Positions 1 through 37,319 of a DNA stretch of 37,319 bases are shown here, in pieces. The position numbers and the translations under genes are program-made. Source of the DNA: a virus (lineage: Duplodnaviria > Caudoviricetes); the IMG/VR virus record IMGVR_UViG_3300046786_000638, positions 1-37,319 of that record. One strand, written 5' to 3'. Position 1 is the stretch's first letter; each line of letters begins with the position of its first letter. The notes under the pieces are model-generated. The model saw only the letters and a program-made list of their open reading frames with translations, was not told the DNA's origin and made no database searches.

Positions 1-124
1 CCACTGAACTGTTCCCCCACGCCACCACTGAACTGTTCCCCCGCGCCTCCACTGAACTGTTCTCCCACGCCACCACTGAACTGTTCCCCCACGCCTCCAC
101 TGAACTGTTCTCCCGCGCCTCCAC
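1..124 (-). repeat. 24-bp coding tandem repeat, 5 units
   Basis: Minus-strand unit GTG G(T/A)G GCG (T/C)GG G(G/A)G AAC AGT TCA, read directly. Confidence 0.97.
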
Positions 125-253
125 TTGTAGGTAATACTGTTTGTCTACAACTATTCTTTTCCAGTAAGTGCCTCCTTCGATTTGGATCTGTACCGCATCT
201 TTTACATCTACCTTATTTAAATCTTCTTGTGTTTTAACTACTATTGTTTTCAT
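1..253 (-). CDS. N-terminal part of the octapeptide-repeat protein (continues at 37319..36622)
   Basis: ATG at 253. Reads MKTIVVKTQEDLNK...LQVEARENSSVEAWGNSS and is open to the window edge. Same repeat as ORF 36622-37314. Confidence 0.85.
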   Translation of the reverse strand, partial: MKTIVVKTQEDLNKVDVKDAVQIQIEGGTYWKRIVVDKQYYLQVEARENSSVEAWGNSSVVAWENSSVEARGNSSVVAWGNSSV

Positions 254-2642: not shown

Positions 2643-3353
2643 ATGAGCGTATCACGCATGATTGATTCTCGTTTTTGGTCGGATAGTTTTGTGGTGGATA
2701 AACTAAATCCTCTTGACAGGTATCTGTTTCTGTATTTTATTACAAACGAAAGAACAAACCTTTCCGGTGTGTATGAAGTACCACTACGAACGATCTCAAA
2801 TGAGACTGGAATAGAAAAAGAGGAAATAGTGAGAATGATGGAAAGATTGAGAGGAAAAGTGGAGTATAAAGACGGGTGGGTGTGTTTGGTGAACTTTACA
2901 AAACATCAGAACATGAAGAACGGTTCTATCGTAAAAGGTATAGAAAACAAGCTAAATGAGCTTCCTGAGTCGATAAAACTATGGGTTTCTGAACTCAGAA
3001 ATACACACCACTCGTATACCACTGGTATACCACTCGTACACGAGCCGTATACGTCTCCCGACAAAGGAATTGAATTAAAAGGAATTAAAAGGAAAGGAAA
3101 GGAAGAGAATACAGCACCAACAAAAACAGCAGAGGATTCCTTTTTTTCAACTCTTGAAGATAATCTCGTACCGACAGCGGGACTACCACTCGAAGAAGTG
3201 AGGAAGTTCCACCGGTACTGGGGTGAGAAAAACAGGAAAGGAAAAATGAAGTGGGAGTTGCAAAAAACATTTGAACTCACCAGACGTATGGCAACGTGGA
3301 GAGAGCGAGCGTTTGGAATTACTAACCAACAAGAAGAAACTATACACCTGTAA
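2643..3353 (+). CDS. Phage replication initiator (N-terminal wHTH, replisome-organiser type)
   Basis: RMIDSRFWSD...LDRYLFLYFITN...SGVYE N-terminus, internal iterons, K/E-rich linker. Confidence 0.8.
   Translation: MSVSRMIDSRFWSDSFVVDKLNPLDRYLFLYFITNERTNLSGVYEVPLRTISNETGIEKEEIVRMMERLRGKVEYKDGWVCLVNFTKHQNMKNGSIVKGIENKLNELPESIKLWVSELRNTHHSYTTGIPLVHEPYTSPDKGIELKGIKRKGKEENTAPTKTAEDSFFSTLEDNLVPTAGLPLEEVRKFHRYWGEKNRKGKMKWELQKTFELTRRMATWRERAFGITNQQEETIHL
3007..3108 (+). repeat. Iterons plus A-rich tract: putative replication origin
   Basis: 11-bp units ACCACTCGTAT, ACCACTGGTAT, ACCACTCGTAC, ACGAGCCGTAT (3007-3050), followed by a purine-rich tract containing AAAGGAATT repeats. Confidence 0.7.
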
Positions 3354-3357
3354 CAAC

Positions 3358-3930
3358 ATGTCAAAACTTTATCTCAAAGGGGTGCAAAAACCCATCACCA
3401 TTACAACTTCACAAGCTAGAAACTTAAACCTGCTGTACGAAAACAGTTTGATATCACCGAAAAAGAGCATCAACCTGGACGGACTTCGTTTCAACAAGGA
3501 GGATATTAAATACATCATCGAAAACGACGTGGAGGACAACATGAGCGAAAGGTCGGACGCAAAGAAAGTAGAAAACGATGGTTACTACAACGACGTGAAT
3601 ACTGCTTTCACCAAGGAAGTAGCAAGACTTTGTGATCTTTCTGTCGAAGAAAAGTCCAACGACACGAGACTGTACCAGTTGGCCTGGGCAGGATTCTCAA
3701 TGTCACCTGTTGCACCAGAGTTTTTGGAAGAAGTGAAGACGAGACAGCGAACTTTCTTTGAAGCTCACCCAACATACCCATACGCGTCGATTTCGGTAGT
3801 CGACTTGCTTCCAAAAGAGAAGTCAGAACAGGACTCGGTGCGTGAGTTTTCTCCGGCGTTTGTTTCTAGTAAAATAAACTCGATAGTAGCTGAGGCATAC
3901 AGGACAGCGAAGTTCATTGGAAAAATATGA
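3358..3930 (+). CDS. Hypothetical protein in the helicase-loader position
   Basis: ATG 4 nt after the initiator stop. No NTPase motif seen. Confidence 0.7.
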   Translation: MSKLYLKGVQKPITITTSQARNLNLLYENSLISPKKSINLDGLRFNKEDIKYIIENDVEDNMSERSDAKKVENDGYYNDVNTAFTKEVARLCDLSVEEKSNDTRLYQLAWAGFSMSPVAPEFLEEVKTRQRTFFEAHPTYPYASISVVDLLPKEKSEQDSVREFSPAFVSSKINSIVAEAYRTAKFIGKI

Positions 3931-4304
3931 TTAAAATCGTCCTTGCTGGAATGGCGCCAGCCAAGAAAAACTCAAAAAGATGGATTCAGAGGGGTGGACT
4001 GAGGTTCCTAGTACCCTCAGAAAGGCATGAAACGTGGCATGGTGGGGCTTTTGTAGAAGTTTTGAGGCAGACTAAGGGTGTACGTCAAAAGATGCCCTTA
4101 AATGTCCAAAAAATCGAAATGACGTTTTACTGCGCTGACAAGAGGCGGAGAGACAGCACGAACTGTGCGGAGAGTATCATGGACTTGTTGGTGGATGTGG
4201 GGGTGATCAAGGACGACAACATGATCGAAGTACCAGAACTGAGACTTGTGTACGGAGGGGTGGTAAAGGAAAACGCTAGAACGGAAATCATTATTTATCT
4301 ATGA
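3927..4304 (+). CDS. rusA: RusA-family Holliday junction resolvase
   Basis: PAKKNS and DKRRRDSTNCAESIMDLL...GVIKDDN motifs. Confidence 0.85.
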   Translation: MIKIVLAGMAPAKKNSKRWIQRGGLRFLVPSERHETWHGGAFVEVLRQTKGVRQKMPLNVQKIEMTFYCADKRRRDSTNCAESIMDLLVDVGVIKDDNMIEVPELRLVYGGVVKENARTEIIIYL

Positions 4305-4959
4305 AACTAATCTTGCAACTTTGCGCTGACACAGGAAGTGATACAAAACCGTACCGAGACGCAGGGTACGATGTTATTCTTGTCGGGAAAGAAATCGGAG
4401 TAGAAAACTATCACCCTCCAAAAAACGTATACGGTATAATTGCTAACCCAGTATGTACGGAGTTCTCGACAGCAAGGAGTGACGGAAAAGCAAGAAACCC
4501 AGAAGAGGGTATGAAACTTGTGAACGAGTGTTTGAGAATTATAGATGAGTGTGACGACTCTCTAAAGTTTTGGGTAATAGAGAAAACCCTGCTCGTGGAG
4601 TACTAAAAGACTTTTTGGGGCCTCCTCAGTTTCAATACCAACCGTGGGAGTACGGAAGTCCGTGGACTAAACATACCGCTCTGTGGGGAAAGTTCAACAC
4701 ACCTCCTAAGTTGTTCCAAAAGTGGGAAGACGTACCTAAAATACCAGAGCTTTATACACGACCTGGAAGGGGAAAGCCATCACTCGCTTTTATGCACGCA
4801 AAAGCACACATGAAGTTTATTCGAGAGTTTGACTGTTTCGCAGAGGAAATACTTAAAAAACCATCAAGAGACAAAAAGAACGGAGGAGGTGCAGACATGG
4901 AGTTTCGATCACTAAACTCTCAGAAGTTTGCCAAGGCTTTTTTTGAAGCCAATCGGTGA
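4301..4959 (+). pseudogene. DNA cytosine-5 methyltransferase, frameshifted at ~4580
   Basis: Motif I-like ILQLCADTGS and motif IV NPVCTEFS are present. Motif VI FWVIENP is split between frames (4301-4606 and 4570-4959). Confidence 0.8.
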
Positions 4960-5063
4960 GTGTTAGAAACTTTTATAAGTTTCACTCCACAGACACCGCT
5001 ATCCACAGGGACAAAACAATGAAAAATGTTAAAATTAAATTGTACCAATTTAAATAACAAAGC

Positions 5064-5516
5064 ATGATAAAAATAAAGTTTTTCCTACCTGACGAAAGCG
5101 ACGACGCAAACCATTTTCTTGAACAGAACGGAAACGCAAATGGTGTGATCGCATATACCACAAACGGTATCTATGTCACGTATGAAGACGGGGTGTTTAC
5201 TGACGGGATGAAGAAGACCGTGCTTTTTAATAAGATGATCGACGCACAGAAGAAGAAGACCATTGTGGAAGCGGACTATAACCGTGACGCAAAGGATTAC
5301 AGCGTGTTTTCACAGGAGGTGGTTGACTTGAAAGAGAAGATCGCAAACTGTAGTGACCCTGCTGAGGCAAAGAAGTTGAAAGGGGATCTTAAAACGTCTG
5401 AGGATGCTGCACAAAACGCAAGTAACCAAATGCTTCTTCAGCTTGGAACGATGAGAGTGTACGACAAGGAGATTGACGGATGTAAACTTGTGCTAGAGGC
5501 AATGAACCATGCTTAG
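5064..5516 (+). CDS. Hypothetical coiled-coil protein
   Basis: 150-aa ORF after an AT-rich promoter-like region with two DnaA-box-like motifs. Confidence 0.75.
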   Translation: MIKIKFFLPDESDDANHFLEQNGNANGVIAYTTNGIYVTYEDGVFTDGMKKTVLFNKMIDAQKKKTIVEADYNRDAKDYSVFSQEVVDLKEKIANCSDPAEAKKLKGDLKTSEDAAQNASNQMLLQLGTMRVYDKEIDGCKLVLEAMNHA

Positions 5517-8363: not shown

Positions 8364-8828
8364 ATGTCTAACATTATCGTCATTTGCAACAACCAAAAGT
8401 GCCGAGTCGGAAGGTACGAAGTGCAACCGGGCAGAACACCAACGTCAAACACTTCGATACTCGACTATGTTATTTGCCCTCACTGCAACGTCCCTAGAAA
8501 CCCTAAGTTGTGGATAGGGCGTAACGTGGCACAGATGTGCAAGGAGTGTCACAGACCTTTTACTAAAAAGTACAGAGCAAGGTTTGGAATGTGCAACATG
8601 TGCTACACACGGTGGTATAGATTACAAAAAAAGAAGCAGTGTTATGATGCGAACAATGGCAAAAACTTCGACAGTAGTTTCCAAGGAGCTACGAGAAAAA
8701 CTAACGAAGATAGCAGTGAAGCAACTGGAAACGTCCAGCGACTACAAGAAGCCACGCATGGAGGTGATACAGAAGTACCTGCGTTTCTACAACAACCAAG
8801 TACCGAAGAAACTGCGACAACTGTTTAA
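8364..8828 (+). CDS. Multi-Cys Zn-finger protein, 3' part overlapping the portal gene
   Basis: CNNQKC, CPHC, CKEC, CNMC. Confidence 0.6.
   Translation: MSNIIVICNNQKCRVGRYEVQPGRTPTSNTSILDYVICPHCNVPRNPKLWIGRNVAQMCKECHRPFTKKYRARFGMCNMCYTRWYRLQKKKQCYDANNGKNFDSSFQGATRKTNEDSSEATGNVQRLQEATHGGDTEVPAFLQQPSTEETATTV
8622..8658 (+). promoter_or_regulatory. Leaderless promoter of portal
   Basis: TTACAA-N15-TATGAT-N7-ATG. Confidence 0.55.
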
Positions 8829-12663: not shown

Positions 12664-13164
12664 ATGTCTGCAAAAAAAGGTTCTGTGCCTTGGAATAAAG
12701 GTAAAAAACTAACAACAGAGCATAAGAGAGCACTGAGTGTTTCACACATAGGAAAGAAGCCGTGGCTTGGTAAAAAACATACCAAAGAATCAAAAGAAAA
12801 GAACTCATTATCTAACAAGGGTCGTATTGCTTGGAATCGTACATACTCTGACCCAGCAGAATCAAAAAGGTTCAGAAGTTGGTGCAAGAATAAGAGAAAC
12901 CGAACAAAGAGACTTCTTGTTAGAGACGGAAAATCTCACACTTTTGCAGAATGGGAACTATTAAAAAAACAGTATGGTAACACCTGTCCTTGCTGTATGA
13001 AAAGTGAGCCGGTTATTAAGCTAACCAAAGACCACATCATACCAATAATTAAGGGTGGTACTGACTGCATAGAAAATATACAACCATTATGCCAACCGTG
13101 TAATTCTATGAAACACACAAAAATTATTAAGTTTAATATAATTCCCTACAAAACGAAGAAGTAA
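12664..13164 (+). CDS. HNH homing endonuclease with NUMOD3-like repeats
   Basis: PWNKGKK and GKKHTKESKEK. CPCC...DHIIP...GG...NIQPLCQPCNSMK. Confidence 0.92.
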   Translation: MSAKKGSVPWNKGKKLTTEHKRALSVSHIGKKPWLGKKHTKESKEKNSLSNKGRIAWNRTYSDPAESKRFRSWCKNKRNRTKRLLVRDGKSHTFAEWELLKKQYGNTCPCCMKSEPVIKLTKDHIIPIIKGGTDCIENIQPLCQPCNSMKHTKIIKFNIIPYKTKK

Positions 13165-23790: not shown

Positions 23791-23826
23791 TTACAAAAAG
23801 ACAACAAATTATACAATACATCCATG
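23791..23826 (+). promoter_or_regulatory. Leaderless promoter
   Basis: TTACAA-N15-TACAAT-N6-ATG. Confidence 0.55.
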
Positions 23827-27429: not shown

Positions 27430-29100
27430 ATGCCATTTACTCCCTACTCACCAACGACATCGCCTCTAGGGGGAACACAGGCAACTCCTCCACAAACTCC
27501 TCCAAAAAGCGGTGGTTTTATGCCTGTCACAGCAGAGTCTCTCGCTAGTATGCAAACAGCTCCAAAAGCACCACTTGGACAACCAAAGGAAGACGTTGGT
27601 CTTTTCAAAGGAATAGCACAAGACGCAACAAAAACACTCATAACAAAGCCCGTCGTTAGAACAGCACAACTTGCCACAACAATAGCAGAGCCGTTTCTTT
27701 CTCCACAAAGTCAGGAGAAGGCACGTACCTTTTCTACGTCTGAGCAGTCAGTAGACTACCCAGGTATAGGGAAAGTAACAGTAGAAGCACCTGGTTCTAC
27801 TGGTTCAGAAGTAACCAAAGACGCAATTTCTTCTGCGCTTGGTGCAGCAAGCTACCTTGCGCCGTACGGAAAAATTGCAGGAGGAGTAGAAAAAGTGATA
27901 ACAGGAGCGCTCGGAAAGTATGTCGCACCAGCGGTTTCTAAAGTTTTGAGTAGGTCTGTAGCAACAGGACTAGGAGGTTACGCAACGGATGTAAAGTCAA
28001 ATATAGAGGAAGGGAAAACAGGGAAAGATGTACTTAAACCTGGTGTTGGTACGGCTGTCGGCGTTACTTTGCCACTAATAAAACCAGCAGTGAAAGGTAT
28101 TGGAACAGTTGCAAAAGAAACACTTGGACTTTCTACCGGTACCGGCGCTGGTGTAATAGGAAAAACGTGGGACGCAGTGATGTCAGGTGGAGAAAAACTA
28201 AAGTCTTTTAAAGAGGGACTTGGAACAGAAGCGGATGCTATTGTATCAGAAGCAAGGGACGCGCTCGGTACAGTAATAGACAATAGAAACATCGCATATG
28301 AGAAGCAACTACAGAGAGTCAAAGGAGTAAAGGGAACATATGACATCGCGCCCGTAAAAGACAAGTTCAGTGCAATGCTAGACAAGTTTGGTGTTTCTAC
28401 AAACTCAAAAACAGGAGAACTTGACTTTTCTCGTTCACCTGGTCTTGGAAGGTACGAAAAAGATCTCAAAAACATGATGAACATGATAAACGACTGGGGT
28501 ACTAAAAAGGGTGACAGAACTATTGTTGGTATCGACAAACTAAAGCAAACAATCGACGACTTCCGCATAGGTTCTACTGACTCTAAAAAGTTTGATGCTT
28601 TCGTTACTGCACTGCGTGACACTGCGAAGAAAATACCTGGTGACAACCCAGAGTACATGAAGCTACTGAAAGACTACGAAACATCTACTGGACAAATTAA
28701 AGAGATACAAAAAGCTCTTTCGTTGGGAGACAAAGCAAGCGTAGATACTGCTTTCAGAAAACTAACATCCTCGCTTCGTACAAACAACGAGTTCAGACTA
28801 CAGATGATCAAAGAGCTTGATGACGCTTCTGATGGTTTCCTCTCTTCAAAAATAGCAGGTCAGCAGATGGGCGAGATACTACCGAGAGGGCTTGCACGAC
28901 AAATCGAAGGAATCGGTGGACTTGCAGCAGGTGGAGCTGGTGCTGCAACGCTTGGGCTTGGTGTACTAAAGTTTATTCCTGCAGCGCTTTTTGCTTCCCC
29001 TAAAGCTGTTCAAATGATGATGCGAGCAATAGGAATACCGTCAAAACTAGTTGGCGAGCTTTTCAACGCGATAGAGGAAGAAGCTATCTACAGAAAGTAG
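27430..29100 (+). CDS. DNA ejection/transfer protein
   Basis: Gly/Ala-rich hydrophobic segments, last large gene of the virion module. Confidence 0.65.
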   Translation: MPFTPYSPTTSPLGGTQATPPQTPPKSGGFMPVTAESLASMQTAPKAPLGQPKEDVGLFKGIAQDATKTLITKPVVRTAQLATTIAEPFLSPQSQEKARTFSTSEQSVDYPGIGKVTVEAPGSTGSEVTKDAISSALGAASYLAPYGKIAGGVEKVITGALGKYVAPAVSKVLSRSVATGLGGYATDVKSNIEEGKTGKDVLKPGVGTAVGVTLPLIKPAVKGIGTVAKETLGLSTGTGAGVIGKTWDAVMSGGEKLKSFKEGLGTEADAIVSEARDALGTVIDNRNIAYEKQLQRVKGVKGTYDIAPVKDKFSAMLDKFGVSTNSKTGELDFSRSPGLGRYEKDLKNMMNMINDWGTKKGDRTIVGIDKLKQTIDDFRIGSTDSKKFDAFVTALRDTAKKIPGDNPEYMKLLKDYETSTGQIKEIQKALSLGDKASVDTAFRKLTSSLRTNNEFRLQMIKELDDASDGFLSSKIAGQQMGEILPRGLARQIEGIGGLAAGGAGAATLGLGVLKFIPAALFASPKAVQMMMRAIGIPSKLVGELFNAIEEEAIYRK

Positions 29101-29103
29101 ATA

Positions 29104-29175
29104 CTAGCAGGTGTCTTTGTTGGCTATATACAACCAAACAAACATATTTGCAAGAACCCAAAGCATTGCTGTCAT
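29104..29175 (-). CDS. Putative 23-aa membrane peptide
   Basis: MTAMLWVLANMFVWLYIANKDTC, with its own TTGCAA-N16-TAGTGT promoter (29184-29211). Confidence 0.4.
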   Translation of the reverse strand: MTAMLWVLANMFVWLYIANKDTC

Positions 29176-29219
29176 ATACCGTCACACTAACACATATTTA
29201 AAACTTTGCAACGTCTAGA

Positions 29220-29256
29220 TTACAAAACCTGTGGATAGCATACAATGGTACAAATG
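29220..29256 (+). promoter_or_regulatory. Leaderless promoter with DnaA-box-like spacer
   Basis: TTACAA-N15-TACAAT-N7-ATG. TGTGGATAG at 29230-29238. Confidence 0.55.
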
Positions 29257-30660
29257 GCACTCTTCGGTAATATAAAAATGAATAACCCGGAAGCAAATGG
29301 TATGAAGTACCTCTTTATCTCTTTTGGTGGGGAATCTTTACCTATCGCATACAAGCTCGTACAAGAGGGCAAAACAGTGGTATACGGCATGATAGACGAC
29401 AGCAAGGACACTCTCACTGAGAACGAACTAGACGGCTACAACCCCGAAAGACCGGAAGACAAGAAGTACCGACTTAGACTTTACGACGGTTTACTAGAAA
29501 AAAACACAGCGGATCAAGTGGTTGTGTGGGCAAAATCAGTCAAAAACCCATCAGAGTGGTTCGTTTTCTCTGACATCAACAACACATTCAAGTACATGGA
29601 CAAACTGCGTGCTATGGGCTTCGTAGGCCTTATGCCGACAGAAGAAGAACGAACAATGGAAGCAGATCGCAACAAGGCAAAGGAGTTCGTAAAAAAACAC
29701 TACAAAGACCTCGACGTTGCAGAAGTGCAGGAGTACAGCAAAGTGGAAGACGCTGTTGATTTTTTGGAGGAAACTGAGGACACGTGGGTACTTAAAGCGC
29801 TTGGCGAACGAGGAAAAACAATAGTGCCGCAGACTCATGACGTAGAGTTTGCAAAGACAGCACTCATTGATGTGCTCACTGAAAAGAAAAAAGACTACGA
29901 AAGTGAAGGGTTCATACTTGAAAAGCGTATACACCCTGTTAGAGAAGTGACACCGGAAGCTGTGTTTTGGGACGGAAAACTCGTATTTACTACCGTTGAC
30001 ATAGAAAATAAGCCGGCATTTGACGGAAACCTTGGGTGTCAAACTGGTTGCTCTCAGTGTATTGTGTTTGAAACAGACAAAAAAGCAAAGATAAACGACA
30101 TCGCTTTCCCGCCTGTCGTGTATGAGATGGCAAAAAAGCACAAAGGGATGTTCGTGTGGGACGCGTCTATCTACCTCGATGAGAAAGACAACATGTACTT
30201 CGGAGAGTTTTGTGCAAACCGTGTTGGTTGGGACAGTATTTTCGCTGAAATTGTAATGAGTGACTCCGTTAGTTCATTTTTCGAGGGAATAGTGAACCAA
30301 GAAAGTCCATTTATTCACAAGTACGGATCTACTGTGAGAGTGTTCAACATACTACCAAATGGAAAACTTATGGAAGACGGCCTGATACAGTGGAAAGACT
30401 GGGTTGAAGATTACGTTTTTGTGTACGACATGTACAAAAAAGGAGACACGTTTGTGACAACTGGTGCAACGTGGGACACCGCTATCATAACAGGGTGTGG
30501 AGACACCGCGGAAGAAGCGATAGACGAAGCATATGAAAACTGTGAGTTCTTCAACTTTGAAGCTGACATGCACAGAACAAAACGCGACTTTCTAGCAACA
30601 GACTACGAAAACGCAATCATGGACAGACACTCACATTTATTAAAGTCTAGCCTACTATAA
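29254..30660 (+). CDS. PurD (GARS)-like ATP-grasp ligase, divergent
   Basis: EADRNKAKEF, WVLKALG, FILEKRI, ENKPAFDGNLGCQTG and GEFCANRVGW parallel PurD motifs. Start codon uncertain. Confidence 0.75.
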   Translation: MALFGNIKMNNPEANGMKYLFISFGGESLPIAYKLVQEGKTVVYGMIDDSKDTLTENELDGYNPERPEDKKYRLRLYDGLLEKNTADQVVVWAKSVKNPSEWFVFSDINNTFKYMDKLRAMGFVGLMPTEEERTMEADRNKAKEFVKKHYKDLDVAEVQEYSKVEDAVDFLEETEDTWVLKALGERGKTIVPQTHDVEFAKTALIDVLTEKKKDYESEGFILEKRIHPVREVTPEAVFWDGKLVFTTVDIENKPAFDGNLGCQTGCSQCIVFETDKKAKINDIAFPPVVYEMAKKHKGMFVWDASIYLDEKDNMYFGEFCANRVGWDSIFAEIVMSDSVSSFFEGIVNQESPFIHKYGSTVRVFNILPNGKLMEDGLIQWKDWVEDYVFVYDMYKKGDTFVTTGATWDTAIITGCGDTAEEAIDEAYENCEFFNFEADMHRTKRDFLATDYENAIMDRHSHLLKSSLL

Positions 30661-30662
30661 CC

Positions 30663-31307
30663 ATGAACAACCCAAAGTATCTAGTGATCCACCATAGTGA
30701 CTCACTCACAAGCCCGTCAAACCGCCAGTTTGACACCATAAATCGACTACACGGAGCACCACCAAACAACTTCCCAAAAAGCTCTCTTGGGTATACGTGC
30801 GGGTACCACTACTTGATCGAGGTAAACGGTCAACTTATTCAAGCGCGAGCTGACACCGACATCGGAGCGCACACACTTATGCACAATTCGGACAGTCTTG
30901 GTATATGTGTTACAGGGAACTTTGACCAACAAATGCCTACCGACGCACAACTGAAAACTCTCAAAGAGCTTCTGATCCAAAAGAAAGCTCAGTATTCTAT
31001 TCCTACATCAAACATCGTGTGTCACCGATACTTCGCAACTACGAGCCTACAAAGTGGAAAGTTCGTACCAAATACAACCAAATGGAAGACGTGGGACAAC
31101 TGTATGCCGTACAAAAGCTGTCCTGGTTCTAACCTCGCTGACAACTTCGGAGCACTCCTCGTCGCTCCGCCACCACAAGTGGTGAGTGTGGAGGACGTGA
31201 ATACAACTATCAGTATTCTCGACAGGATTATACTTTTACTTAAAAACTATCTTGCTCAGCGTAAAGCTCTTGGTGCACCACTACACGAGAGAAACGAAGC
31301 ACAATAA
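30663..31307 (+). CDS. N-acetylmuramoyl-L-alanine amidase endolysin (Amidase_2 type)
   Basis: LVIHHS, GYHYLI, GAHT, SLGIC, HR, KSCPG. Confidence 0.92.
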   Translation: MNNPKYLVIHHSDSLTSPSNRQFDTINRLHGAPPNNFPKSSLGYTCGYHYLIEVNGQLIQARADTDIGAHTLMHNSDSLGICVTGNFDQQMPTDAQLKTLKELLIQKKAQYSIPTSNIVCHRYFATTSLQSGKFVPNTTKWKTWDNCMPYKSCPGSNLADNFGALLVAPPPQVVSVEDVNTTISILDRIILLLKNYLAQRKALGAPLHERNEAQ

Positions 31308-31311
31308 CATC

Positions 31312-31545
31312 ATGGATACAACAAAACTTAAACTACACATTGTATCGTTTGCACACACATTCCTTGCAGTTTTTATCCCTATTTTCATCGTCAACTTGAA
31401 CTCTTTTGACTTCACAACAATTTCAAAAGAAAGCCTCATAGCTTTTGGCGTTGCAACGATGCGCGCAACTGTAAAAGCACTATGGAACATGCTTGCTGAG
31501 AAGTACGCACCATCTCTTTCAAGCGCTCCAAAGAACAACTACTAG
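31312..31545 (+). CDS. Putative holin
   Basis: 77 aa with two hydrophobic helices, directly after the endolysin. Confidence 0.6.
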   Translation: MDTTKLKLHIVSFAHTFLAVFIPIFIVNLNSFDFTTISKESLIAFGVATMRATVKALWNMLAEKYAPSLSSAPKNNY

Positions 31546-31608
31546 GAAAGTGGATAACATGTGGATAGCTTGGTATCTTTTCACAGTACCACTTGCTACC
31601 ATAAGGTA

Positions 31609-32034
31609 ATGGACTACAAAAAACTTCTCATACTTGTTCTGTGCTACATACTTATGTACCGCACGGAAACGGCGCACGCTGTTACACAAGAACCTGTTAC
31701 AGTGAACGACATACAGATCAAAATATCTGCCTATGCTTTTATTTACGGCATAGATGTCGACGTTTTCTCCACCGTTTTGTCTTGCGAAAACCCATCCCAC
31801 GACCCAAAACTGCAAAGTGAGATGAAGTACACAAGAGATCACCCTGAGTGGGGAGTAAAAAAAGGAGACAGAGAACTTTCTTATGGACTGAGTCAAATAC
31901 ACCTACCGACAGACAAAAGTGTTACCTACGAAGAAGCAACTGACGTAGACTTCTCACTTCGTTATATGGCAAGCGAACTTTCAAAAGGGCACGGCTCTCG
32001 ATGGAGCTGTTACAACCTACATTACAAAGTGTGA
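31609..32034 (+). CDS. Exported lytic transglycosylase (SLT-like)
   Basis: Signal-like KKLLILVLCYILMY...AHA. LSCEN catalytic Glu, SYGLSQI, terminal WSC. Leaderless TACCAT-N6-ATG. Confidence 0.75.
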   Translation: MDYKKLLILVLCYILMYRTETAHAVTQEPVTVNDIQIKISAYAFIYGIDVDVFSTVLSCENPSHDPKLQSEMKYTRDHPEWGVKKGDRELSYGLSQIHLPTDKSVTYEEATDVDFSLRYMASELSKGHGSRWSCYNLHYKV

Positions 32035-32124
32035 TGTAGGAGTATATTTAAAACGTAACGCGGTCAGATAAGTTGTCCGTAAAGCCGGGCCACCGCGGCC
32101 AGTTCTTTGAACGGAGGATCTATG
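32022..32124 (+). promoter_or_regulatory. Promoter and leader of the GC-rich cassette
   Basis: TTACAA-N15-TATATT (32022-32048), GC hairpin 32084-32100, boxA-like GTTCTTTGAAC, GGAGG at 32113. Confidence 0.5.
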
Positions 32125-32244
32125 TACGTCTGTCACCGGTGTGCAAAAAGCATCCTTCCTTCTGAGCTTGTCTTCCAACAAGAGAACGGAGTGAGGATGT
32201 CGTACCACATCTACTGTCTTGGTCTGAAAAGGGCAAGTCAGTGA
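32122..32244 (+). CDS. 40-aa Zn-finger microprotein
   Basis: MYVCHRC...YHIYC, GGAGG SD, GTGA overlap with the next ORF. Confidence 0.6.
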   Translation: MYVCHRCAKSILPSELVFQQENGVRMSYHIYCLGLKRASQ

Positions 32245-32534
32245 AAAGGCTGATGAACCCAGTCATACCAGACTACCGCCCAAAAGCGGAGCGAAAGGTG
32301 GAGGAAGTAACACTTCCACCGCGAACCTGCCTCGTCTGCAACAAGACGACACAGGGCTATGGCGTTTGGCAACACGGCTACACATGCAGTCGGAAGTGCG
32401 AAACAGTCCAGGAATCGAAACCGAGAGACTTTGGAGAGCCAGATGAAAAACTTTCTCTACTATGTGGCAGCAGTGACACTGCTGTTCACGATGTCGCTCC
32501 CGTCGAAGGCGGGGACGAAGGACGAACTGCGTGA
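32241..32534 (+). CDS. Zn-finger protein (treble-clef-like)
   Basis: CLVC...YTCSRKC. Confidence 0.55.
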   Translation: MKRLMNPVIPDYRPKAERKVEEVTLPPRTCLVCNKTTQGYGVWQHGYTCSRKCETVQESKPRDFGEPDEKLSLLCGSSDTAVHDVAPVEGGDEGRTA

Positions 32535-32775
32535 ACTGCTCGACGGAAAGCAGATCGTCTACGACGGCGTGTGCTGGTTCGACGCCAAGAACGTGATCAC
32601 GTTCAAGCAGGAGAGCAAGAAGAGCGTCAAGCGCTGTGTCGTCGGCATGGAACTGCCCGACCAGTCCAAGCACTACATCCTGCTGATCAACAAGAACGGC
32701 GCAACCGAGTTGCTGGTGTACGACGAGAAGACCAAGCAACAGAAACTTCTCTGGTGGAACGGCCATGAGGCATGA
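32443..32775 (+). CDS. Small secreted protein, GC-rich codon usage
   Basis: GGAG SD, signal peptide MKNFLYYVAAVTLLFTMSLPSKA, two Cys. Confidence 0.75.
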   Translation: MKNFLYYVAAVTLLFTMSLPSKAGTKDELRELLDGKQIVYDGVCWFDAKNVITFKQESKKSVKRCVVGMELPDQSKHYILLINKNGATELLVYDEKTKQQKLLWWNGHEA

Positions 32776-32789
32776 CCGTCACGAGAAGG

Positions 32790-32818
32790 AAAAACTACAC
32801 GAACTTCGTGTAGTTTTT
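32790..32818. terminator. Bidirectional terminator between the convergent arms
   Basis: AAAAACTACACGAA-C-TTCGTGTAGTTTTT. Confidence 0.85.
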
Positions 32819-33269
32819 AATTTTTCAAGTACCACTCCATCATTTCGCTGTGTGAGCACCAGAGGTAGACGTCGCTTTTTTGACCCTCTGTTTTGTAGCA
32901 GTACTCGTATACGTGAGTTTTACTAACGACGGACTTGTTTCGATACGACTTGTAGAGTATACGAGCTTGACCAACACGGTTCCTGAGTATTCCGAGGTTG
33001 AACCTCTTTATGTCTTTTTTAAAGTTGGTGTTTTTTGACATCTTCCCAAGAAGCGGGTAGTGATCTATAACACCGTTTTCTACCAACCAAAACACACACT
33101 TCTCCTGTCCTAGTCTTGTTGGTACAAAGTACCCGTGACACTTTGGATGAGCACAGTCGCAAGGAATAGGATCTATAGCAAGTTTAAACTCAGGCTCCTG
33201 GTTTTCGTGAAAAACAACGTCGTTTCCTTTGTTGTTTATTATAGCAAGCGCTCGTCCTCTCTTTTTCAT
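32817..33269 (-). CDS. Hypothetical protein with its own leaderless promoter
   Basis: TACACT-N6-ATG on the minus strand. DnaA-box-like motif at 33309-33317. Confidence 0.65.
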   Translation of the reverse strand: MKKRGRALAIINNKGNDVVFHENQEPEFKLAIDPIPCDCAHPKCHGYFVPTRLGQEKCVFWLVENGVIDHYPLLGKMSKNTNFKKDIKRFNLGILRNRVGQARILYKSYRNKSVVSKTHVYEYCYKTEGQKSDVYLWCSHSEMMEWYLKN

Positions 33270-33369
33270 CTGTACAGTGTATATCTTAAACGTGTTTTTA
33301 AAACACCACTATCCACATGTGAGACACCGTTTACCCTCTAATGTCTTTTCTTGCATGGTGTGTGGGGGT

Positions 33370-33588
33370 CTATTTACAGCTGTTAAAAAACTCTGTGATT
33401 TCTTTTAATGGTTCTATATGTCCCATGTATATTCTTCTCCATTTATAATTACCTAACCAGGTTTTATATTGTTCTTCAACTTCTACAATGTTAGAACCAA
33501 AGTATTTGGTAACCCTATAGTAGTCTATTATCCACTTAAACTCATAACTTTTTTTCATATTTCTAGTCTTTGTAGTATTTTCATACAT
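33370..33588 (-). CDS. Hypothetical protein
   Basis: AT-rich ORF in the early arm, start uncertain. Confidence 0.55.
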   Translation of the reverse strand: MYENTTKTRNMKKSYEFKWIIDYYRVTKYFGSNIVEVEEQYKTWLGNYKWRRIYMGHIEPLKEITEFFNSCK

Positions 33589-33710
33589 CTACTTCTTAAG
33601 GGCTTCTAAGACTTTCACTGGGTCGTAAGGCCCCCAACTGTACTGTCCCATCCTTTCCACTACGTCAGTGAGTGCTTCTGCATACCCCTCTGTGTACCCT
33701 ATCTTGTACC

Positions 33711-34157
33711 TTATATCAGACAGTTGATATCAGACAGTTGACCTTTTCTGTATGCTTTCTCCTCTGCTTTACGAATCTCATCTTTGATAAAGTCTACCCA
33801 ATCAGAATACTGAATAAACGTATTACAGTACATTTCTGATACTTTCGTTTCCAACTCTTCTGGTTGTTCAACTGGTTTACAATTTTCACAAGAAAATCCT
33901 TTATGGGTATGGTTTCTAGTACATTCTGTTGTACACGTCGTTTCTGCACAATTACAATATTCTTGCTGTGGAAGAGACTTTGCGAAGTGATACGCACAGA
34001 GTTTTTCTCCAAAGCAACTTCTACACTCTTCTGGTTGTGTGGAAGGTCTACAGATAGGGTCTTGCCACTTGCATTTTGTACAAATGTACTCTGGTACTCG
34101 AAACTCTTGATTTCCACACTCTGGGCACTGTTGTGCTAGTTGTCTTTTTTCTGTCAT
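33711..34157 (-). CDS. Cys-rich hypothetical protein
   Basis: Multiple CxxC motifs. Confidence 0.6.
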   Translation of the reverse strand: MTEKRQLAQQCPECGNQEFRVPEYICTKCKWQDPICRPSTQPEECRSCFGEKLCAYHFAKSLPQQEYCNCAETTCTTECTRNHTHKGFSCENCKPVEQPEELETKVSEMYCNTFIQYSDWVDFIKDEIRKAEEKAYRKGQLSDINCLI

Positions 34158-34166
34158 ATTAGTTTG

Positions 34167-34265
34167 TTAGTAGTAAAAGACGTACTTACCAAGCATTGTT
34201 ACCGACACCACTGTAAATACTATGTAGATTAGTATTGCAACTTTTAACCAAAAGTCAGTTTTCAT
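34167..34265 (-). CDS. 32-aa membrane peptide
   Basis: MKTDFWLKVAILIYIVFTVVSVTMLGKYVFYY, fills a gap in the operon. Confidence 0.5.
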   Translation of the reverse strand: MKTDFWLKVAILIYIVFTVVSVTMLGKYVFYY

Positions 34266-34611
34266 ATGTTGTGTTTGGTTGGTTTGTTAGTAGTTTCTTG
34301 CACTTTTCTATCTGCTCTTGAAGATAGATGATGTCTTTACTAATGATTTGGTATTTACCGTTTTCTACTCCGTTGTACATGTCATCGGTTGGTAGTTCTA
34401 TTTTCATCATCCCCTTCTTCCTTGCCAGCTCTGCCTCAAGCAGTGAGATTTGAGAGGAGATGAGGATTGGATAAATTGCATTATGCACAACTCCTATTTC
34501 ATCAACACCACTCACTGTTTCTTCTCTTAGGTTTAATTCTTTTGCAAGTTTTGGTAGTGTTTCTTGCTTAAAAGATTCCGCACTCTCCTGTGCGATTTTA
34601 CTTAGTGACAT
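34255..34611 (-). CDS. Hypothetical protein
   Basis: ORF packing in the early arm. Confidence 0.65.
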   Translation of the reverse strand: MSLSKIAQESAESFKQETLPKLAKELNLREETVSGVDEIGVVHNAIYPILISSQISLLEAELARKKGMMKIELPTDDMYNGVENGKYQIISKDIIYLQEQIEKCKKLLTNQPNTTYEN

Positions 34612-34790
34612 GGTTGTTGTGATTGTAGTGCTGATTTAATTGTTTCGACTATTTTCCTCATTCTTTTACCTTCCCAGTTTTCAGTACTGGTAGTTTCTCT
34701 TTTGTAGAGCCGTGCGTATTCGTCACACAACCTCTCCACGTCTATTTCCTCTGACCTGCTTTGGTGATCAATTTCGTTTCTTGTTCTCAT
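34602..34790 (-). CDS. Hypothetical protein
   Basis: ORF packing in the early arm. Confidence 0.55.
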   Translation of the reverse strand: MRTRNEIDHQSRSEEIDVERLCDEYARLYKRETTSTENWEGKRMRKIVETIKSALQSQQPCH

Positions 34791-34804
34791 ACGATTTGTC
34801 GTGG

Positions 34805-35167
34805 TTAGTTGTTTAAAAGTTCCTTAAAGTATGACTCGATATCTTGGCCTTCCTGGATGTGGTCGATGAGGCGGTGCTGTTGGTATTTCCAAGTTTCCTC
34901 AGACATTTCCTGGTACTGTTGACCGTACTGGCTGTCAACGTAGTCTTCTTTTACGTACTTTTCCGTGTAGGTTCTTTTACTCCACCCCAACCCACGCCCT
35001 AACGCTTGCCAAAATAGTGTATCGAGAAGGAACGTTTCTACTGGAAAGTCTATGACTTCTCCTCGTGCTTCAAACGCCGCTACTGGCCTGTACCAGCTTT
35101 GTACTTGCTTAAAGTCATACCCATTCTCTACCGCTGTCTTGATTGCTTTGTTTGTGTATGTTGACAT
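34805..35167 (-). CDS. Hypothetical protein
   Basis: 120-aa ORF with LLDTLFWQALGRGLGW segment. Confidence 0.7.
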   Translation of the reverse strand: MSTYTNKAIKTAVENGYDFKQVQSWYRPVAAFEARGEVIDFPVETFLLDTLFWQALGRGLGWSKRTYTEKYVKEDYVDSQYGQQYQEMSEETWKYQQHRLIDHIQEGQDIESYFKELLNN

Positions 35168-35169
35168 GG

Positions 35170-35325
35170 TTATAGTATATTTACCTGATAATCTCCGTGC
35201 ATACAGAGGACAAGAAACGCTACAGTCAAGATCACCAGAACTGCTACCTGTACCGCGTGTATCTTTCTTTCTACTGATACTGACTTTGTATAATCTCCTA
35301 GTTGTTTGCGTGTTATGTTGTTCAT
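35170..35325 (-). CDS. 51-aa membrane protein
   Basis: MNNITRKQLG...VQVAVLVILTVAFLVLC, ATGA overlap with the upstream gene. Confidence 0.55.
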   Translation of the reverse strand: MNNITRKQLGDYTKSVSVERKIHAVQVAVLVILTVAFLVLCMHGDYQVNIL

Positions 35326-35687
35326 TCTCTGCTGTTTAAAAACTTTGTAATTTCCTCCATATTTTCAACACGGAGTCGGTACACTGATAACCTCCCTATT
35401 TTCCTATCTTCTACCAGTTCTGGGAAGTGTATAGCGAGATCTGATGCTCGTGCCGGAGCGCGGTGAGAGAGAAAGTCTCCTTTACTGTTCACTCGACCAA
35501 CAAACTCGTACGACCACCACCAAATCTTCTCTATACGGTTTGTCTTCCTATAGAGGTACTCGTCGTACATCACTTGAACCACCTTTTGAACACCAGTGTG
35601 ATCTGACTTCGTTCTTTTTCTTGACTCGTACAAGTCTCTCATCTCCTCAAACTGTTTTTCAGAAACAGCATCATTTGTTTTTTTCAT
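35322..35687 (-). CDS. Hypothetical protein, possibly winged-helix DNA-binding
   Basis: RAPARASDL...GRLSVYRL. Confidence 0.6.
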   Translation of the reverse strand: MKKTNDAVSEKQFEEMRDLYESRKRTKSDHTGVQKVVQVMYDEYLYRKTNRIEKIWWWSYEFVGRVNSKGDFLSHRAPARASDLAIHFPELVEDRKIGRLSVYRLRVENMEEITKFLNSRE

Positions 35688-36207
35688 GATTAAGCTCAGC
35701 TAGTTTTTTAATGGCAACGTCTTTGAGTCTTTGAAGCGGTGGGTACAGCACGTTTATTTCCAGTTGACTGTCTACCCACTGTTTGTACGGCTCTGGCTCA
35801 GGAAACTCATACCCGTTTTGCATAAACCAGTCCAGTATTCTATCCAAAAACTGTCGGAACTCTTCTTTGTTACAGTCGGCGGTGCTTTTTGACCCTTGCA
35901 CCAACTTTCCGTGAATGTCGTAGTAGTAATACGGCAAAAACTCCTCTTTTAAACACGCACGCGCCATCTCTGCGTCCATAACCGTCCAACGCCCATTTCT
36001 GCCCTGTACGAAGTGCTGTAGCGCAAAATAAGGAACTACCGCACCCTCGAAGAAACGACGCACCTGTGTGGCAATCTGCTCGTCTGGTGTTATTTTGAGT
36101 CGCATACCGTCGTTTTCCTTGAGGAACTTGTCCCACATGCCCTTGTGGTAGTCGGATGAAAACTGAATGCCTCCGTTTTTGACCTGTACGTTGAATACGT
36201 TTTTCAT
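35671..36207 (-). CDS. NinB/Orf-like recombination protein
   Basis: QVRRFFEG and KSTADCNKEEFRQFLDRI motifs. Confidence 0.6.
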   Translation of the reverse strand: MKNVFNVQVKNGGIQFSSDYHKGMWDKFLKENDGMRLKITPDEQIATQVRRFFEGAVVPYFALQHFVQGRNGRWTVMDAEMARACLKEEFLPYYYYDIHGKLVQGSKSTADCNKEEFRQFLDRILDWFMQNGYEFPEPEPYKQWVDSQLEINVLYPPLQRLKDVAIKKLAELNHEKNK

Positions 36208-36621: not shown

Positions 36622-37319
36622 TTATTGTGTTAGTTTGTTACCTTTTTTGTCGCACTCATACAGCACTGTTCCTTTTTCAAATGCAATTTTGTGTGGGTAC
36701 TGAGGGTTTTCCCAAGCATACATGTCTTTCGGATTTACCGATATTGCAATATACTTGTCGTCACTTGTTTTCCTAAACTCATCACAGAAGTAGGTACGTG
36801 AACACGCATGAAACTTTCCTTCTCCGCACTCCTCTTTTTCTGGGTTGTAGTCGTGATGTTGCATCTTTTTACCTATACTCCAAAGTGTCTCGTTTTTGCT
36901 ACCTTCTTGGGTCTTAAAGTCAGATGAAACTCTTTTGTAAACAATCACTTCTTTTTCTTTCTCGATTCCCTCTTTTTCGAGCCATCCATTTACGCCAGGT
37001 TTATATTTCGGAACTATCACGGTCGCCGTTTTAGCTTTCTTTATGATTTTACCTTTGGCGAGTTCCCAACACACTGAAAACGCAAAAAGTGCCACAGTTG
37101 CATAGTCCGAACTTAGGCGGACAGCACTGTTCCCCCACGCCTCCACTGAACTGTTCTCCCGCGCCACCACTGAACTGTTCCCCCACGCCACCACTGAACT
37201 GTTCCCCCGCGCCACCACTGAACTGTTCTCCCGCGCCACCACTGAACTGTTCCCCCACGCCACCACTGAACTGTTCCCCCACGCCACCACTGAACTGTTC
37301 CCCCGCGCCACCACTGAAC
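36622..37319 (-). CDS. C-terminal part of the octapeptide-repeat protein with globular C-domain (possibly DUF7666-like)
   Basis: V(V/E)A(W/R)(G/E)NSS repeats followed by a VYKRV...ECGEGKFHAC...KI domain. Confidence 0.85.
   Translation of the reverse strand, partial: SVVARGNSSVVAWGNSSVVAWGNSSVVARENSSVVARGNSSVVAWGNSSVVARENSSVEAWGNSAVRLSSDYATVALFAFSVCWELAKGKIIKKAKTATVIVPKYKPGVNGWLEKEGIEKEKEVIVYKRVSSDFKTQEGSKNETLWSIGKKMQHHDYNPEKEECGEGKFHACSRTYFCDEFRKTSDDKYIAISVNPKDMYAWENPQYPHKIAFEKGTVLYECDKKGNKLTQ
37126..37319 (-). repeat. 24-bp coding tandem repeat, 8 units
   Basis: Same unit as at 1-124. Confidence 0.97.

Follow-up and report, generated by a model that had tools for sequence, protein, structure and literature searches.

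A small gene cassette at positions 32022–32818 of a tailed-phage genome, IMG/VR record IMGVR_UViG_3300046786_000638 (analysed as the whole 37,319-nt stretch, hereafter the window), belongs to a conserved family that recurs in unrelated phages and carries a translation-initiation signal avoided by the rest of the genome. Each phage has one such unit, in which a promoter, a leader, small genes and a terminator follow one another and the cargo is exchanged around a zinc-finger marker gene, often beside the lysis genes; we hold this description with high confidence. The cassette genes are led by Shine–Dalgarno (SD) sites, whereas the phage backbones are SD-less. Our best reading, which we hold tentatively, is that the phages infect cells of the candidate phyla radiation (CPR; Patescibacteria) and that the SD-led genes may be translated in the larger bacterium on which such a cell is parasitic.

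Two styles of translation initiation within a single genome

The comparison of initiation styles rests on the zinc-finger gene, open reading frame 2 (ORF2) of the cassette, which was chosen by protein motif, independently of SD. In 13 of 15 phages, GGAG or GAGG precedes the first start of this gene, as against 15 of 412 backbone genes (Fisher p = 2 × 10−15). A single rule was applied throughout (the start was taken as the first ATG in frame; backbone genes of at least 120 aa), and in two control phages it scored 22 of 36 and 10 of 31 genes as positive. The other cargo genes were listed by their SD sites, so that counting them would be circular, and they are excluded as evidence. In record G012 the first small ORF was missed and the leader not properly examined, and in G014 the first ATG of the zinc-finger gene is perhaps not the true start.

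Within the window, backbone starts are mostly preceded by A-rich sequence that lacks an SD site. An earlier note, written from the letters of the window, had reported three ORFs, two SD sites and a GTGA overlap that joins ORF1 to ORF2, and all are found where it placed them (Table 1). Its statement that these are the only clear SD sites went too far: GGAG or GAGG also stands ahead of 3 of 49 backbone starts (including AAGGAG ahead of the minus-strand gene 35671–36207), which is the chance level (5.6% of random 12-nt windows).

The cassette is also set apart by its composition. The window has a GC content of 0.44, and positions 32061–32780 are its GC-richest 720-nt stretch (0.54). The GC content of third codon positions (GC3) is 0.83 in ORF3, compared with 0.40 pooled over 49 backbone genes (range 0.23–0.55; binomial p = 2.5 × 10−19), whereas ORF1 (0.55) and ORF2 (0.51) are merely at the top of the backbone range. 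The codon signal is strong in ORF3 alone, the gene whose G/C-ending codons the earlier note had pointed out. Across the family, cassette GC3 spans 0.44–0.70 and backbone GC3 0.20–0.62 (r = 0.19), and the cassette has the higher value in 13 of 15 phages. GC3 is 0.70–0.83 in the secreted genes of the window, L031, G007, G008 and G009. Four ORF3 homologues, which share 45–69% protein identity, differ at 102 of 170 conserved pairwise fourfold sites (the pairs are non-independent), with 31 G–C swaps and 3 A–T swaps, yet their GC3 is 0.63–0.83 in backbones of 0.27–0.41. The silent sites have turned over while the GC3 stayed high, which indicates that the bias is maintained.

Table 1. Features of the cassette, in coordinates of the window
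Feature	Position	Strand	Remarks
Sigma70-type promoter, TTACAA-N15-TATATT, of the phage's own class	32022–32048	+	Start site predicted near 32055
tRNA-top-half-like leader, predicted RNase P substrate and 5′ stabiliser	32059–32101	+	
Leader stem P1	32059–32064 with 32092–32097	+	
Leader stem P2	32075–32078 with 32087–32090	+	8-nt loop
Leader 3′ end, GCCA	32098–32101	+	
boxA-like tract	32102–32112	+	Immediately after the RCCA end
SD of ORF1, GGAGG	32113–32117	+	Duplex energy −9.5 kcal/mol, strongest of 52 starts
ORF1, CxxC...HxxC peptide	32122–32244	+	40 aa
ORF2, CxxC-YGxW-TCSxxCE zinc finger	32241–32534	+	97 aa; marker gene of the family
SD of ORF3, GGAG	32433–32436	+	GGAG at the equivalent place in L029, L031 and G008
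ORF3, predicted secreted protein	32443–32775	+	110 aa
Predicted bidirectional terminator	32790–32818	+	13-bp hairpin, T runs on both strands

A conserved family in unrelated phages

The cassette marked by ORF2 is present in 16 phage records, counted after chance matches and near-copies had been removed, and 15 of these were analysed, whole or in the available stretch. A metagenome scan yielded four loci from two other phages, in each of which a promoter is followed by a structured leader, a small ORF, the zinc-finger ORF2, ORF3 and a hairpin. Further members came from IMG/VR, which was scanned with the leader, the ORF2 motif and a second family of cargo. The zinc-finger scan gave 17 matches, 13 of them true cassette loci and all of these in SD-less phages. 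L097, L101 and L105 (antisense chance matches) and L107 (the same sequence as L093) were dropped from it, and L094, a distant relative in an SD-using phage, was taken out of the count and used as a control. In the independent scan for the second cargo family, 5 of 15 matches were true, each adjoining a zinc finger within SD-less flanks, and the other 10 were unrelated. Across all counts, L030 and L032 were left out as near-copies of L029 and L031. Two of the 41 matches to the leader were true.

The phages that carry the cassette share 0–9 genes pairwise, and the terminase of the window matches none of G007–G009. Terminase relatives (G001–G005) lack the cassette genes; they are distant (G001 and G003: 7–9 shared genes), four of them being incomplete. 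Cargo genes are exchanged around the zinc finger: an 80-aa family occupies the slot of the window's 40-aa ORF1 in L029, L031, G007 and G008, and different signal-peptide proteins fill the last or middle slot in G007 and G009. Besides ORF2 and ORF3, a family of 60–80 aa whose middle is rich in aromatic residues and whose C terminus bears the motif IPxYVxEY recurs, in places as tandem copies, in L092, L096, L102/L143, L103/L144, L106/L145, L108/L147 and L135, and a 73-aa HNH-like protein is encoded in L093 and L103.

That the cassette is an assembly chimera or a chance outlier in composition is very improbable. A single 18.6-kb contig covers positions 29000–36000 with flat depth and no joint, although it may stem from the very run that gave the window. 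Short contigs identical to the cassette and to the backbone occur in two other studies, neither junction being bridged, and the same architecture occurs in 15 further records.

In passages of PMC3594210, phage morons of the HK97 gene 15 type are described as self-contained units with their own promoter and terminator and a deviating GC content that are present in some phages and missing from relatives. The sequence signals of the cassette agree with this description in its promoter, its terminator and its GC contrast (0.54 versus 0.44). The cassette departs from it in several ways: one family is common to unrelated phages and keeps its marker gene and structured leader, the initiation signal is one that the rest of the genome avoids, and no donor was detected. 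The earlier note had suggested a recent moron from a different bacterium. A broader account, in which ordinary morons were repeatedly acquired from GC-rich, SD-using donors and the SD sites and GC3 are relics, would fit the moron definition given in those passages of PMC3594210 (the cassette has a promoter and a terminator of its own and a contrasting GC content, and it is missing from G001, a terminase relative with a complete genome), the exchange of cargo between phages and the fact that genomic contexts are seen for only a minority of the 73 clusters, at 50% identity, of the ORF3 family. We nevertheless consider it quite unlikely. No match was found among 50,697 phage records (INPHARED) or 72,556 plasmids (PLSDB), and a scan of 185,579 GTDB genomes with exact patterns, which have limited reach, gave one spurious 11-residue match among 14 candidates. 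The true IMG/VR matches are all in SD-less phages, silent sites have largely been replaced while the bias stays, and the leader and gene order are conserved. The exact patterns fall far short, as is evident from ORF3, for which they found nothing in IMG/VR even though G008 has a member. A covariance model of the leader (R1) and an ORF2 profile found nothing in sets of 11 and 101 genomes around a non-CPR centre, a result that is uninformative on CPR. Given the 16 records with unrelated backbones, the lack of a donor in these searches and the persistence of SD sites and GC3 despite sequence turnover, recent capture from a different bacterium is not supported. The cassette is conserved rather than a recent one-off capture; it is a moron in its anatomy, but a conserved family across unrelated phages with an uncatalogued leader.

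Promoter, tRNA-like leader and terminator

The promoter is of the phage's own class, as the earlier note had proposed. The pattern TTACAA-N15-TAYAWT, which was derived from the counted sites themselves, occurs at three positions (23791, 29220 and 32022) compared with 0.06 expected, and none of 100 shuffles reached three. The site at 23791 drives a leaderless gene, with its −10 hexamer six nt ahead of the ATG. The cassette promoter belongs to the class that also drives leaderless genes of the phage, so that transcription would take place in the phage's own host, and we think it probable that the polymerase of the infected cell carries it out.

In a further reading, it is the DNA of the phage that transits or additionally enters an SD-using partner, with the cassette as the unit expressed there and the remainder expressed only in the CPR cell. 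The promoter, boxA-like tract, SD sites and intrinsic terminator are all of kinds found in standard bacteria, as this reading would have it. However, the 15–16-nt spacing and the type of −10 hexamer are those of the phage's own leaderless promoters, the usual spacing being a longer 17 nt; we regard this reading as unlikely.

Nine cassettes share a leader in which a 6-bp stem (P1) closes over a 7–16-nt linker and a 4–6-bp hairpin (P2). In all nine copies P1 is paired at six of six positions and P2 is fully paired, the module measures 42–48 nt, and the 3′ end reads RCC (RCCA in six of the nine). The leaders were registered by hand on the boxA-like tract, and covariation was re-checked on an independent MAFFT alignment. 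There, 54 of 54 P1 cells are paired and four of the six pairs vary on both sides, in a set in which five of the nine leaders are close kin, whereas slid controls are paired at 31–59%. In seven of the nine, the −10 hexamer lies 9–10 nt ahead of the stem, such that the transcript would begin 2–4 nt upstream of the stem.

Hairpins made of an acceptor stem and a T arm with a 3′ RCCA are substrates of RNase P, which measures about 12 bp, according to parts of PMC11143913. The leader resembles such minimal substrates in its 6-bp stem stacked on a 4–6-bp hairpin, its RCC(A) end and its predicted 2–4-nt 5′ leader, and its 3′ strand runs 11–12 nt from the loop to the discriminator position. It differs in being joined to an mRNA, in its mostly non-canonical loops and in its linker of 7–16 nt; unlike tRNA genes, it has no anticodon arm. 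From this anatomy the leader is a predicted RNase P substrate. The copy in G017 has a canonical-looking T loop, and its contact with Rfam is confined to the T arm of a tmRNA model (E = 4.3). At the gathering level, Rfam returned nothing for the window or for three leaders or non-coding stretches, and ARAGORN found no tRNA, that is, no cloverleaf with an anticodon arm, at any leader. The model R1 recovers its nine training leaders and none in the remaining six cassettes.

The earlier note had read the leader as a GC hairpin standing for boxB, followed by boxA, as in rRNA antitermination leaders. That hairpin is the minimum-free-energy fold of the single sequence, is not unusual (z = −0.12) and is at odds with the homologues, which support a different fold; in place of the proposed order we read a tRNA-like module with a boxA-like tract behind it. 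The likeness of this tract to boxA is our assumption. With up to one mismatch, GTTCTTTGAA occurs seven times in the window against 5.9 expected by chance, and is thus not enriched, and the exact 16-mer of boxA plus SD has ten matches in IMG/VR, none in a cassette context. The tract matters only because 10 of 15 cassettes have a similar one at the same position, no more than 95 nt from the first start that was examined. It is kept in three of the six cassettes without the tRNA-like module. In many 16S–23S spacers, the boxA of rRNA antitermination follows a tRNA gene, and the T-rich tract of the cassette likewise lies directly behind a tRNA-like module; it differs in leading protein-coding genes and in that the structure upstream is more than a simple boxB hairpin.

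At the other end of the cassette, the terminator-like hairpin is unusually stable (z = −4.0 and −3.3; 0 of 200 shuffles) and is shared with a convergent leaderless gene (32817–33269, minus strand).

Two further RNA features were noted in cassette phages. In L135, the sixteenth cassette phage, at 4082–4127 (plus strand) and outside the training set, a weakly scoring tRNA-like module (model E = 0.44) with an ACCA end and the same spacing lies 9 nt behind TATAAT, upstream of the cassette of that phage. About 900 nt without long ORFs follow (4140–5050, plus strand) and precede the SD-led genes; they include a boxA-like tract and, at positions 4809–5037, a stable 229-nt fold (z = −3.0) that is negative in Rfam and ARAGORN. 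In record G017, ARAGORN detects a tmRNA gene (L108 7908–8216, plus strand) about 1.7 kb from the cassette leader and on the opposite strand.

Likely host of the phages

The phages likely infect Patescibacteria, as judged from their SD-less, partly leaderless backbones. The −10 hexamer ends exactly 6 nt before the ATG in 29 of 584 backbone genes, which form a leaderless peak, and SD-less, partly leaderless genes with sigma70-type promoters are a trait that points indirectly to CPR phages. Phages of Bacteroidota were considered as an alternative and found no support: what we take to be the Bacteroidota-type promoter motif occurs in only 9 of 584 upstream regions, compared with a clear sigma70 −10 peak.

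Which ribosome reads the cassette

The SD sites, the independent codon bias and the secreted product together suggest a translator unlike that of the backbone. Part of PMC9297842 states that only 48% of the 16S genes of Parcubacteria yielded an anti-SD motif, and cultured Patescibacteria grow on other bacteria, as stated in part of PMC13059738. That about half of Parcubacteria have no detectable anti-SD and that Patescibacteria grow on bacteria favours translation in the partner cell, and this is the reading of the whole chain that we tentatively prefer. The transcript would open with the predicted tRNA-top-half-like module with its RCC(A) end, followed by the boxA-like tract; RNase P would cut the module, or the module would shield the 5′ end. 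The RNA, or the phage DNA, would then reach the partner, whose SD-reading ribosomes would make cytoplasmic small zinc fingers and an envelope-bound signal-peptide protein. Our guess is that the products modify the partner, which the CPR cell and, through it, the phage rely on; they might, for instance, keep rival phages out or release nucleotides. The more specific version, in which an mRNA from the infected epibiont bears a 5′ tRNA-mimic tag, is passed into the partner and is translated there, whereby the virus would reprogram the cell that hosts its own host, is in our view doubtful.

A different possibility, to which we give only slightly less credence than to partner-cell translation, is that the ribosomes of the CPR cell itself read the cassette and that its SD sites mark a special, separately regulated class of genes in an otherwise leaderless and coupled system. 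The tRNA-like leader and boxA-like tract would then stabilise and antiterminate the RNA in the CPR cell, and ORF3 would function on the surface of that cell, superinfection exclusion being one example. This reading needs no intercellular transfer, it accords with a promoter of the phage's own class, and the same part of PMC9297842 leaves about half of Parcubacteria with an anti-SD. It also has a precedent in Bacteroidia, where rare functional SD sites (rpsU) persist in an SD-less lineage (parts of PMC7797042 and PMC9976891), and the first moron to be studied encodes a membrane exclusion protein (passages of PMC3594210). The likeness to Bacteroidia lies in the few strong SD sites within an otherwise SD-less genome; the differences are that the SD-led genes here are phage cargo with distinct codon use and that the promoters are sigma70-like, with leaderless backbone genes, and not of the Bacteroidota type. 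What same-cell translation leaves unexplained is the codon bias: with one cell and one tRNA pool, cassettes at GC3 0.44–0.70 would not be expected beside backbones at 0.20–0.62, nor the secreted genes of five phages at 0.70–0.83.

Several observations weigh against translation in the partner. The assignment to a CPR host is an inference, and the terminase of the window matches cultured phages at only 35–38%; about half of Parcubacteria keep the anti-SD, so that the CPR cell's own ribosome may read the SD sites. The tRNA-like leader was found in only 9 of 15 cassettes, ORF2 of the window itself has no clear SD, and the GC enrichment is uneven: GC3 is 0.28–0.60 in the zinc-finger gene, and in 2 of 15 cassettes it does not exceed that of the backbone. 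An SD-using 100-kb phage, G019, has a distant zinc-finger relative (E = 8 × 10−7), and no function is assignable to any cargo protein. We know of no route by which mRNA passes between bacteria, and a literature search on such passage found nothing relevant.

Translation in the partner therefore remains our best reading at the tentative strength given above. The earlier note had offered such a cross-cell cassette as an option and named findings that would refute it, and none of these appeared: no chimera was seen, no copies were found in ordinary elements and SD sites are rare elsewhere in the genome. The cross-cell idea comes through these tests with added support, while its CPR host and its partner-cell translation rest on inference.

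It is still an open question how CPR bacteria influence the cells that carry them, and the hosts of most of them are unknown. With its small size, marker gene, definable leader RNA and foreign-style initiation signals, the conserved phage-borne cassette makes the question of whose ribosome reads the genes testable with a 750-nt construct. If the cross-cell reading is true, a phage would express genes in the host of its host, and the codon use of the cassette would point to the partners of uncultured CPR lineages. Even if translation takes place in the same cell, the cassette family still contributes a tRNA-like leader motif that is uncatalogued, a number of protein families without characterisation and a means of marking phages whose hosts are SD-less. 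In the literature searched (subscription papers and supplements lay outside its scope), SD-led cassettes or tRNA-like leaders in CPR phages are not described, and term look-ups in the parts of PMC13059738, PMC10746230, PMC12911398 and PMC10783764 that were covered found no passage on such cassettes.

Cassette proteins

Neither Pfam nor PHROGs has a family for ORF1–ORF3 or their homologues; ORF1 gives only weak LIM and zf_UBZ matches in Pfam (E = 0.023). ORF2, whose tail overlaps ORF3 by 92 nt, has four invariant Cys in an alignment of 14 members and is modelled as a small zinc finger (predicted local distance difference test (pLDDT) score 73.5). Its treble-clef matches are weak (TRASH, eL24 and YacG; Z = 2.2–3.1 over 36–55 residues), and the PDB contains no sequence relative below E = 2.4.

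A hydrophobic N-terminal stretch is present in 74 of 75 aligned ORF3 members. The ORF3 model (pLDDT 85.5) consists of a signal-like helix and a small β-sheet domain with conserved Cys44 and Cys65. Its best fold match is the Ugi/SAUGI-type inhibitor Ugi-2 (Z = 6.1; root mean square deviation 3.8; 74 residues aligned), which is within the range of common arrangements. Foldseek places the inhibitor Ivy at E = 0.15 and returned nothing below E = 0.001 in the PDB or BFVD, and look-alikes in the ESM Atlas score at most 0.84, the level of a lead.

Other features of the window and of related phages

The window, a 37.3-kb genome that CheckV rates as 99% complete, encodes a terminase, an HK97-type capsid protein, an amidase and a YqaJ recombinase. 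A gene containing tandem repeats of 24 nt (a unit of 8 residues) crosses both ends of the record (36622–37319 plus 1–125, minus strand), indicating that the genome is circular and was opened within the repeat. A Pfam scan of 23 window proteins found no integrase; among the cassette phages, record G018 is classed as a provirus.

Several plus-strand genes of the window deserve mention. At 29245–30660, an ATP-grasp protein with weak GARS domain matches (PF01071, E = 6 × 10−6) has its own TTACAA-N15 promoter in front and the amidase gene next downstream. The overlapping frames 4301–4606 and 4570–4959 resemble one protein split by a frameshift, a Cys-rich ORF at 8364–8828 overlaps the portal start, and an HNH/NUMOD3 endonuclease gene (12664–13164) lies between a scaffold-like gene and the capsid gene.

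SD-led genes were also seen outside the cassettes. In G001, a lone, strongly SD-led gene (L076 4606–4926, minus strand; GC3 0.65; 106 aa; no Pfam family) is situated directly behind a holin-like gene and is followed by a hairpin. L031 has a second SD-led operon (3259–5252, minus strand; GC3 0.43–0.59), divergent from its cassette, which encodes a 390-aa protein that is phosphoesterase-like by eye (no Pfam match), a small membrane protein and an N-terminal domain of dATP/dGTP diphosphohydrolase (PF18909, E = 2 × 10−25); genes for nucleotide handling that bear signals in the style of the partner would be in keeping with a cross-cell role. Finally, GroEL/GroES-like genes, named by eye, are present in the cassette phages G008 and G009 (L088 1182–2998 and L090 2732–4815).

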